From: Escherichia phage PHB11
Sequence record: MK524176.1
Direction: 5' to 3' (one strand)
Length of the DNA stretch: 64,000 nt
Every line of letters starts with the position of its first letter. The stretch's first letter is position 1. Both the position numbers and the translations under genes were made by a program. Of this stretch, positions 43,949 through 44,994 are shown one piece after another. Below the pieces are notes generated by a model, which worked only from the letters and a program-made list of their open reading frames with translations, did not search any database and was not told where the DNA came from.

Positions 43949-44389
43949 TTAGAAAGGTTTTCTACGTTGCTTGTTAATGTTAGCTTTCATAGCAGCTAAG
44001 TGGTTTTGCTGTTCAATCAGTCGTGAGCGTTCTTGATGGCTAAGTTCCATAGTGTTCACATTCTCAATAGCTTGAGTGGCTTGCTTTAAAGCTCGACCAA
44101 TCTTACCAGACATTTTACGTTTTGCAATAGTTGCTTGATGTTTAGGTTCAACCACACGATAACCAACACCCATTGAAGCAACCAGATAAATCTTCTCTTC
44201 TTTAAGAAGCTTCTCAATAAACTTCTCAAGTCGGTTTAGACGTGTAAGTGCATAAGCCTTCATTTCATCTTCGTACTTAACAATGTCGCCTTGATAAGTT
44301 GGCTTCACAATACCTAAGAAGGTGTCCATCTCAGAATGTGATACAGTGTCACCGTAACTAAACTTTGCTGCTAATGCTTTTGTATTCAT
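43949..44389 (-). CDS. Hypothetical protein (cassette gene 2)
   Basis: 146-aa ORF; C-terminal basic region. Confidence 0.55.
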   Translation of the reverse strand: MNTKALAAKFSYGDTVSHSEMDTFLGIVKPTYQGDIVKYEDEMKAYALTRLNRLEKFIEKLLKEEKIYLVASMGVGYRVVEPKHQATIAKRKMSGKIGRALKQATQAIENVNTMELSHQERSRLIEQQNHLAAMKANINKQRRKPF

Positions 44390-44391
44390 AA

Positions 44392-44994
44392 TTAAACGTT
44401 ACCTTCTGAAATAACTTCTACAGAAAAACGACCAAAGCGTGGACGCCAATCACCTACACCACAAAGGTTACCAGCATTTTCCAGAACCATCAGGAGTTCC
44501 TCTCGTGTGATTTGCTCTTCATCGAACATCAAACCGAACTCTACAGACCAGTCACGGAAGATTGGACGGTAGCTCATAACTCGTGCTGTACCAATCTTAA
44601 CAGACTTAGCATAGATAAAGTCTGGATTCTTAGCAAGTTCTTGTGGGTTTGCTGGACAGTTCTTGATAGTCATTGGGAAGACTACATCTGTCAGCATAAT
44701 GGCTCGGTCAATTACCTTACCAAGTTTGTTGAGTTTTGCACCAGACTTGATGCAAGCCTCAATCATCTCACCGTTCATAACAAAACCTAGTTGCTCATCG
44801 TAGTAACAAGAAGTTACCAGTTGGCTTTCTGCTAAGAGCGCATAGTCTTCGTCAGTCTTTTTACGTTTACTGGACAGAGACTTGTGATATTTTGTCAGAG
44901 GATTTAACGGGTCTGACAACGTATCGTTATGGCTCAGGAAAGGACGAGTACCAGTGATTTTGATATTTAACAGTTTCATAGCATTTAGCTCCAC
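44392..44994 (-). CDS. Hypothetical protein (cassette gene 1)
   Basis: 200-aa ORF; no recognisable motif by eye. Confidence 0.55.

Follow-up and report, generated by a model that had tools for sequence, protein, structure and literature searches.

What do two short open reading frames on the minus strand of Escherichia phage PHB11, and the runs of small repeats on either side of them, contribute to the phage? The initial annotation of the window (the whole 64-kb stretch of PHB11 DNA analysed here, to which coordinates without a locus label refer) regarded the two encoded proteins as candidates for an accessory function such as host takeover or anti-defence, on the grounds of their genomic position and of the bracketing repeats. 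The analysis reported here leads to a more specific answer: positions 43653-45402 (minus strand), comprising two guide RNA (vrRNA) genes, the genes vipr and vap1, and two more vrRNA genes, very probably form a complete type II VIPR locus that most likely silences a satellite parasite during infection. VIPR (Viral Interference Programmable Repeat) is already known from two preprints of April-June 2026 and from PDB entry 36pp. Its effector, Vipr, polymerises on vrRNAs composed of GGY-NN repeats, and the exposed NN dinucleotides pair with double-stranded DNA, every third base of which is skipped, leading to transcriptional silencing; the system of phage SUSP1 belongs to type II and is the one represented by PDB 36pp (10.64898/2026.04.26.720920, 10.64898/2026.04.26.720927).

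Genomic context of the locus

The PHB11 window is that of a Felixounavirus (Felix O1-like phage). The 3.6 kb surrounding the locus share 99.2% identity with Escherichia phage vB_EfeM_pEP20 and 90-96% with approximately 200 further Felixounavirus/Ounavirinae genomes. Elsewhere in the window, a cluster of 26 tRNA genes at 10515-16100 (plus strand) is typical for Felix O1-like phages. The order of genes on the minus strand is DNA polymerase, an HNH endonuclease, small ORFs, ATP-dependent DNA ligase, vipr and vap1, followed by a 127-aa signal-peptide protein, an HTH regulator, dihydrofolate reductase and thymidylate synthase. The HNH-type ORF (171 aa, 47192-47707, minus strand), flanked by the small early genes and by DNA polymerase, is the equivalent of the gene annotated as 'HNH homing endonuclease' in the relative ASO1B. 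It is missing in some relatives, and the satellites described below carry an 'AP2/ERF family' protein of similar size.

The locus appears to have its own transcription signals. A strong sigma-70-like element (TTGACA-16-TATACT, 11/12 matches) at 45375-45402 (minus strand), just past the ligase stop codon and upstream of the first vrRNA, U1, is kept in both SUSP1 and Salmonella phage SEP1 and, judged by its sequence, probably acts as a promoter. Directly after vap1, at 43922-43937 (minus strand), a GC hairpin followed by a run of T residues resembles a terminator and is annotated as such in ASO1B. No CRISPR repeat-spacer array was found, as a repeat search of 43400-45500 returned only period-5 arrays with their leaders and tails, and no further cas genes (cas1/cas2, large or small subunit, Cas5/Cas6) were present nearby, the neighbours being the ligase, the HTH regulator and small unknown proteins.

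Vipr, a minimal RAMP protein

Both ORFs are present on the minus strand at the coordinates first given and represent real genes, as indicated by PHROG and tblastn matches and by confident structure models (pLDDT 94 for Vipr and 96 for Vap1). The two proteins match phrog_4652 (E=5e-97) and phrog_5926 (E=5e-76), both families of unknown function. The larger ORF was first listed as 44392-44994, encoding 200 aa from a GTG at 44994; the gene itself stands, but this start is probably wrong. The start of vipr is most likely the ATG at 44979 (44392-44979, minus strand, 195 aa), because a GGAG lies 9 nt upstream, the gene is given this start in every annotated relative (588 nt, 195 aa) and the alignment with the solved SUSP1 protein begins at this methionine. 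The five extra residues encoded from GTG 44994 are probably not translated.

A k-mer/HMMER search identified 519 relatives of Vipr of approximately 190 aa and 37-51% identity, encoded by uncultured phages or in genome records that bear the labels Gordonia, Rhodococcus, Streptomyces and Xanthomonadaceae. Their alignment contains an invariant C-terminal loop, G-x-G-D/x-W/Y-R-P-x-F-G-R-F, which is a RAMP-type glycine-rich loop. The earlier view that neither protein has a recognisable motif was fair in so far as Pfam has no match for Vipr or Vap1, but it does not hold for this loop. When the family profile was compared with solved structures, the one match was PDB 36pp, 'SUSP1 Vipr protein' (E=6e-81), and the pairwise identity between the PHB11 protein and the SUSP1 gene product is 97%. 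As expected for type II VIPR, PHB11 Vipr is a small RAMP that has a single RRM, a glycine-rich loop and a thumb, and it would be the effector that polymerises on the vrRNAs. A tblastn search with the 195-aa protein retrieved 129 of 50,697 phage records, of which 117, at 90% identity or more, are Escherichia, Salmonella, Shigella and Citrobacter phages of the same group, while 12 fall below 60% identity; the listed ones among these 12 are Pseudomonas, Mycobacterium, Gordonia and Listonella phages.

The residues that read GGY and hold the skipped base are conserved as well. In SUSP1 Vipr, the first G of each unit is contacted by H17 and D177, the second G by R138 and W178, and the pyrimidine by E71, M72, C173 and R179, while K33 contacts the target backbone (10.64898/2026.04.26.720920, 10.64898/2026.04.26.720927). 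All of these residues are present in PHB11 Vipr with the same numbering, and across 36 relatives R138 and R179 never vary and H17 and K33 hardly do. The residue named 'T175' in the published description is V175 in both the PHB11 and the SUSP1 protein.

Vap1, a probable DNA-binding partner

The smaller gene (43949-44389, minus strand) encodes 146 aa and is annotated identically in relatives. Its product is 99% identical to that of the gene that immediately follows vipr in SUSP1 and is identified as Vap1 because this is the position stated for vap1 in the published work, where vap1 lies directly downstream of vipr, its co-expression enhanced VIPR-mediated protection and its product is called a 'predicted DNA-binding protein' (10.64898/2026.04.26.720920, 10.64898/2026.04.26.720927). 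A full HMMER scan found 235 relatives, which share a conserved G-x-G-Y-R-x-V-x-P-x-E-Q hairpin, and a k-mer protein search returned near-identical copies only. Among 40 Vap1 relatives no Pfam match rose above threshold, and the Vap1 profile had no match among PDB sequences. The AF2 model (pLDDT 95.8), the N-terminal part of which is winged-helix-like, combines a small helix/strand/helix unit with a long helix, a 'wing' formed by a beta-hairpin, and a long hairpin of helices. Its fold matches are weak and confined to winged-helix and PadR-like proteins, and this weak similarity makes Vap1 a probable DNA-binding protein.

Four guide RNA genes flank vipr and vap1

A search of the 64-kb window for arrays of at least seven [G/T/A]G[C/T]NN pentamers returned exactly four, all flanking vipr-vap1 and all on the same strand, whereas 200 shuffles of the window contained no array of at least seven pentamers. 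The bracketing repeats are therefore real, but they are read here as guide RNAs and not as mere brackets. Two vrRNA genes lie upstream of vipr, namely U1 (45180-45307, with 18 GGY-NN units at 45307-45218, a 38-nt pseudoknot tail at 45217-45180 and the 5' leader CACTTAAGAATCTTTAAGAGGGGTTTTTAAGTGA) and U2 (45056-45144, with 11 units at 45144-45090 and a 34-nt pseudoknot tail at 45089-45056), and two lie downstream of vap1, namely D1 (43787-43884, with 12 units at 43884-43825 and a 38-nt pseudoknot tail) and D2 (43653-43751, with 13 units at 43751-43687 and a 34-nt pseudoknot tail at 43686-43653), all on the minus strand. Across the 54 units of the four arrays, G at position 2 and C or T at position 3 occur without exception (54/54 for both), position 1 is mostly G (40 units, against 11 with T and 3 with A), and positions 4-5 are free to vary. 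The last unit of every array is constant (GGTAT or TGTAT) and is followed by the tail of 34 or 38 nt. Published vrRNAs range from 9 to 16 units in length (10.64898/2026.04.26.720920, 10.64898/2026.04.26.720927), a range that U1 exceeds with its 18 units.

The tails fold as H-type pseudoknots. Tails from the window, from three satellites and from three related phages were aligned in two small sets (five sequences each), in which pairing extended to 95.6% and 100% of cells, with compensatory double changes in 4 and 3 pairs, respectively, compared with 25-50% of cells in a control with slid partners. The U2 tail has the same sequence as the tail of SUSP1 vrRNA1, the pseudoknot of which has been resolved by cryo-EM (10.64898/2026.04.26.720920, 10.64898/2026.04.26.720927). 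A search of 43400-45500 against Rfam gave one match only, at chance level (E=0.77), and the vrRNAs are thus absent from Rfam 15.

Each vrRNA is preceded by a leader of approximately 35 nt (43752-43787, 43885-43921, 45145-45180 and 45308-45343). The leaders are of two conserved types, CACTTAAGAG..GGGTTTTTAAGTGA or CCTTTTTAAAAGGTCTTT..GGGTCTTTTAATAA, and both types end in an A/T-rich, -10-box-like element a few bases ahead of unit 1; they are candidate promoters or processing sites. An 86-aa ORF with a TTG start at 45009-45269 (minus strand; VWCGDVRSGNVRCG...) was rejected as a gene because it is a translation of the GGY-NN arrays; extra 'hypothetical proteins' are annotated over the array region in some relatives.

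An E. coli satellite as the presumed parasite

An E. coli satellite is reported as the common target of guides from the SUSP1 clade; it has a tape-measure gene and a baseplate-hub gene akin to that of the phage (10.64898/2026.04.26.720920, 10.64898/2026.04.26.720927). This satellite was located by comparing the PHB11 hub gene (30016-30813) with 5426 complete E. coli genomes, 474 of which have a matching chromosomal gene for a 'phage baseplate protein'; in about half of these 474 genomes nucleotide identity is 90-98% and the match spans up to 760 bp (approximately 540 bp in most). The satellite is present in 474-538 of the 5426 genomes (about 10% of chromosomes), is approximately 12 kb in length, highly mosaic and flanked by a large serine recombinase gene, and is integrated in yecE (DUF72), beside tonB and at other sites. 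The identity of the hub genes suggests that the phage and its presumed parasite have exchanged DNA recently, while their tape-measure proteins are only 26-37% identical. No match to E. coli genomes was obtained by BLAST with the intergenic region downstream of vap1.

Some satellites also carry guide-like sequences of their own. Arrays of 10-13 units with phage-like pseudoknot tails were found in 4 of 12 satellites (L009:5677-5726, L011:5809-5868, L012:6176-6240 and L015:5653-5717), and none of the 12 satellite loci contains a homologue of vipr or vap1, so that these vrRNAs would need the Vipr of a helper phage.

Predicted targets of the four guides

The four guides were scanned against the 12 fetched satellite variants (L008-L019) under the published one-base-skip rule. 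Units 7-17 of U1 match the antisense strand of the satellite tape-measure gene at 21 of 22 positions, at the same place in five variants, while the six 5' units of U1 have no target in the satellite variants or in any searched E. coli genome. U2 matches another site in the tape-measure gene (18/22 in L018 and 19/22 in L019), D1 matches the satellite N6-adenine methyltransferase gene (17-20/24, at the same offset in six variants), and units 1-10 of D2 fit a satellite gene of 107 aa in three variants (19/20). The predicted targets are thus the tape-measure gene, for two guides, the N6-adenine methyltransferase gene and the 107-aa gene. Predicted sites include L016:13379-13432 and L019:9001-9033 in the tape-measure gene, L018:7334-7369 in the methyltransferase gene and L008:8342-8380 in the 107-aa gene, and WCHEC020031, RM9088 and E203449 are examples of strains that carry a matching satellite. 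Over whole arrays the best NN matches are 77-86%, and none is 100%. The constant last unit never matches and is treated as part of the tail for that reason; when it and the six unmatched 5' units of U1 are set aside, the matches amount to 83-95%, above the 80% threshold used in the published target analysis (10.64898/2026.04.26.720920, 10.64898/2026.04.26.720927).

Controls were scored on the best 10-unit stretch, which corresponds to 20 positions. In the satellite loci, U1, D1 and D2 reached 19/20 with a skip of one base and 14-16 with skips of 0, 2 or 3, and 0/100 shuffled U1, D1 and D2 guides reached 19 (maximum 17-18). For U2, the control was run on the first satellite set, before L019, and gave 17/20 with a skip of one base and 15 with skips of 0, 2 or 3; as 2/100 shuffles equalled 17, the U2 match is marginal relative to shuffled guides in that set. 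L019, in which U2 matches at 19/22, was fetched after this control. With the phage's own 64-kb window as target, U1, D1 and D2 scored 15-16/20 and U2 scored 15, and no self-targets were found. When the idealised targets of U1, U2 and D1 were compared by BLAST with all E. coli genomes, 132, 56 and 87 genomes were matched, respectively, only in satellite tape-measure, methyltransferase or hypothetical genes, and those of U2 in satellite tape-measure genes only. The idealised D2 target was found in 295 genomes, in a hypothetical gene throughout the matches listed and in 26 places on plasmids. U1, U2 and D1 skip the wobble base of the codon, as published, but D2 skips codon position 2 of the annotated 107-aa frame. 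At the D2 target in L008 (8342-8380) and the homologous sites in L009 and L010, one skipped base varies between T, C and A, which changes the encoded residue between Ile, Thr and Lys.

These matches bear on the function first proposed for the two proteins. Had they been stand-alone host-takeover or anti-defence factors, the flanking repeats would be unrelated intergenic or recombination elements, a reading in keeping with the variable presence of the module in close relatives, which is frequent for anti-defence genes, and with the lack of a match for Vipr or Vap1 in Pfam or in PADLOC, with which those two proteins were scanned. There is hardly any chance that this is correct, given that the pairing of protein and array recurs in relatives that are only 41% identical, that Vipr has an RNA-binding RAMP fold with GGY-reading residues, and that the agreement between the repeats' variable dinucleotides and satellite genes far exceeds that of shuffled controls. 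An accessory function as such is borne out, in the form of a genetic-conflict module that is variably present (115/230 records), whereas host takeover and classical anti-defence are not, the predicted targets being satellite genes and not host defence genes; 'anti-defence' would be loosely right if satellite interference were counted as host-borne defence. Homology to a replication accessory protein, which would have pointed elsewhere, was not found, and the two proteins are not replication proteins.

DNA as the likely target, and a model for silencing

The targets could in principle be recognised as RNA. The closest solved folds to Vipr are the RNA-targeting type III subunits Cmr4 and Csm3, and three of the four guides (U1, U2 and D1) are complementary to the sense strand and could therefore also pair with mRNA, as expected if a Vipr-vrRNA filament bound satellite mRNAs in the manner of type III Cas7 backbones and blocked their translation or stability. 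However, D2 has sense polarity and cannot pair with the mRNA of its target, and the 97%-identical SUSP1 protein binds dsDNA specifically in vitro, represses from either strand and holds both DNA strands inside the filament in cryo-EM (10.64898/2026.04.26.720920, 10.64898/2026.04.26.720927). RNA targeting is accordingly considered highly improbable.

Recognition of double-stranded DNA would instead proceed as follows. Each vrRNA would consist of a run of GGY-NN pentamers closed by a 3' pseudoknot cap, and Vipr, for which binding of vrRNAs has been reported in SUSP1 (10.64898/2026.04.26.720920, 10.64898/2026.04.26.720927), would coat it with one protomer per pentamer, burying GGY and exposing the NN dinucleotide. 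The exposed dinucleotides would then pair with double-stranded DNA that has the same dinucleotides one skipped base apart, and the bound filament, in a system that lacks a nuclease, would persist and block transcription, with Vap1, as a probable DNA-binding protein, strengthening the silencing. The four PHB11 guides would be aimed at genes of the approximately 12-kb satellite, and the parasite would be silenced during infection. From the work on SUSP1 (97-99% identity) or from sequence, we infer that vrRNA expression, RNP formation, silencing and dependence of the satellite on PHB11 would apply here.

Distribution, orphan vrRNAs and distant loci

Among 230 records that match the DNA of the locus, 115 carry most of that DNA, and the Felixounaviruses without vipr-vap1 (approximately half of the locus-matching records) have kept a single orphan vrRNA. 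For example, in Salmonella phage SEP1 (L020:1801-2082) the gap between the ligase gene and the gene for the 127-aa protein measures 282 bp and contains neither vipr nor vap1, but retains the promoter from the upstream end together with a single leader, an array of 11 units and a single tail, which correspond to 45343-45402 and 43653-43751 of the window. The SEP1 junction has the appearance of a deletion between two copies of the CACTTAAGAG...TTTTTAAGTGA leader. The orphan SEP1 guide has no target among the E. coli satellites in hand, and the discovery preprint says nothing of orphan vrRNAs in its main text.

The loss of vipr-vap1 in half of the relatives, which keep one vrRNA, indicates that loss is tolerated. 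Together with the lack of a perfect match between any guide and a sampled satellite, it might suggest that the locus is decaying or idle in PHB11, its guides no longer meeting a target in the natural host (Escherichia fergusonii or E. coli). We regard this as very unlikely, as neither ORF is disrupted and both are 97-100% identical to their counterparts in many phages, no functional residue has been lost, pairing is preserved in each of the four tails, and outside the last unit and the 5' units of U1 the guides stay above the published match threshold (83-95% versus 80%; 10.64898/2026.04.26.720920, 10.64898/2026.04.26.720927).

Tentatively, and with the odds rather against it, vrRNAs may be traded and used in trans, orphan and satellite guides being taken up by Vipr that a helper or co-infecting phage supplies ('guide piracy'), with the cassette gained and lost by recombination between vrRNA leaders; U1, with its six targetless 5' units, may then be an intermediate of guide turnover.

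The association of protein and array is ancient, as it recurs at 41% identity. In a locus of an uncultured phage from skin metagenomes (L003), three GGC-NN arrays lie upstream of a Vipr that is 41% identical to that of PHB11, and a gene 3' of it aligns with the Vap1 family. Each of the three arrays (L003:5560-5960) is followed by a tRNA-like minihelix composed of an acceptor-like stem and a GGTTCGAnTCC T-arm, possibly a processing signal for RNase P or RNase Z; ARAGORN detected no full tRNA at these arrays. A 134-aa ORF called across the L003 arrays is probably spurious.

Relationship to known systems

PHB11 shares with SUSP1 the same genes between DNA ligase and the gene for the 127-aa protein, guides of GGY-NN units with pseudoknot tails, and the same class of target, an E. 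coli satellite with tape-measure and baseplate-hub genes. The two phages differ in the layout of their vrRNAs (two upstream and two downstream in PHB11, one and three in SUSP1) and in their guides, as all NN sequences are different and PHB11 has one array of 18 units. The VIPR system of a Pseudomonas fulva prophage, described in the same preprints, likewise comprises vrRNAs, vipr and vap1 and follows the same recognition rule, but it resides in a temperate element, its guides target regulators of a resident prophage, and its Vipr, judged from the published residue numbering, is only distantly related.

[quoted passage not shown] Unlike class 1 CRISPR-Cas, the PHB11 system is phage-encoded, has no CRISPR array, no cas1/cas2 or other cas gene and no nuclease, and uses a 5-nt repeat code as its guide. 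In terms of biology, it resembles the system of Vibrio phage ICP1, a lytic phage with a full type I-F CRISPR-Cas system, including spacer acquisition and DNA destruction, the guides of which target the chromosomal PLE satellites that parasitise it. In both cases a phage-borne, RNA-guided system is directed against a chromosomal satellite, but VIPR has no known adaptation module and silences its target instead of cutting it.

Significance

VIPR is a recently reported form of RNA-guided DNA recognition and a proposed ancestor of the CRISPR RAMPs, with a gapped code in which two of every five guide bases are read against two of every three target bases. Orphan vrRNAs without Vipr, satellite vrRNAs without Vipr and the 18-unit array may be new, if minor, points. 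For PHB11, correct annotation turns two 'hypothetical proteins' and four 'repeats' into one defined system, and the analysis supplies its guide set and predicted targets, an independent reproduction, on another phage, of the published anti-satellite targeting.
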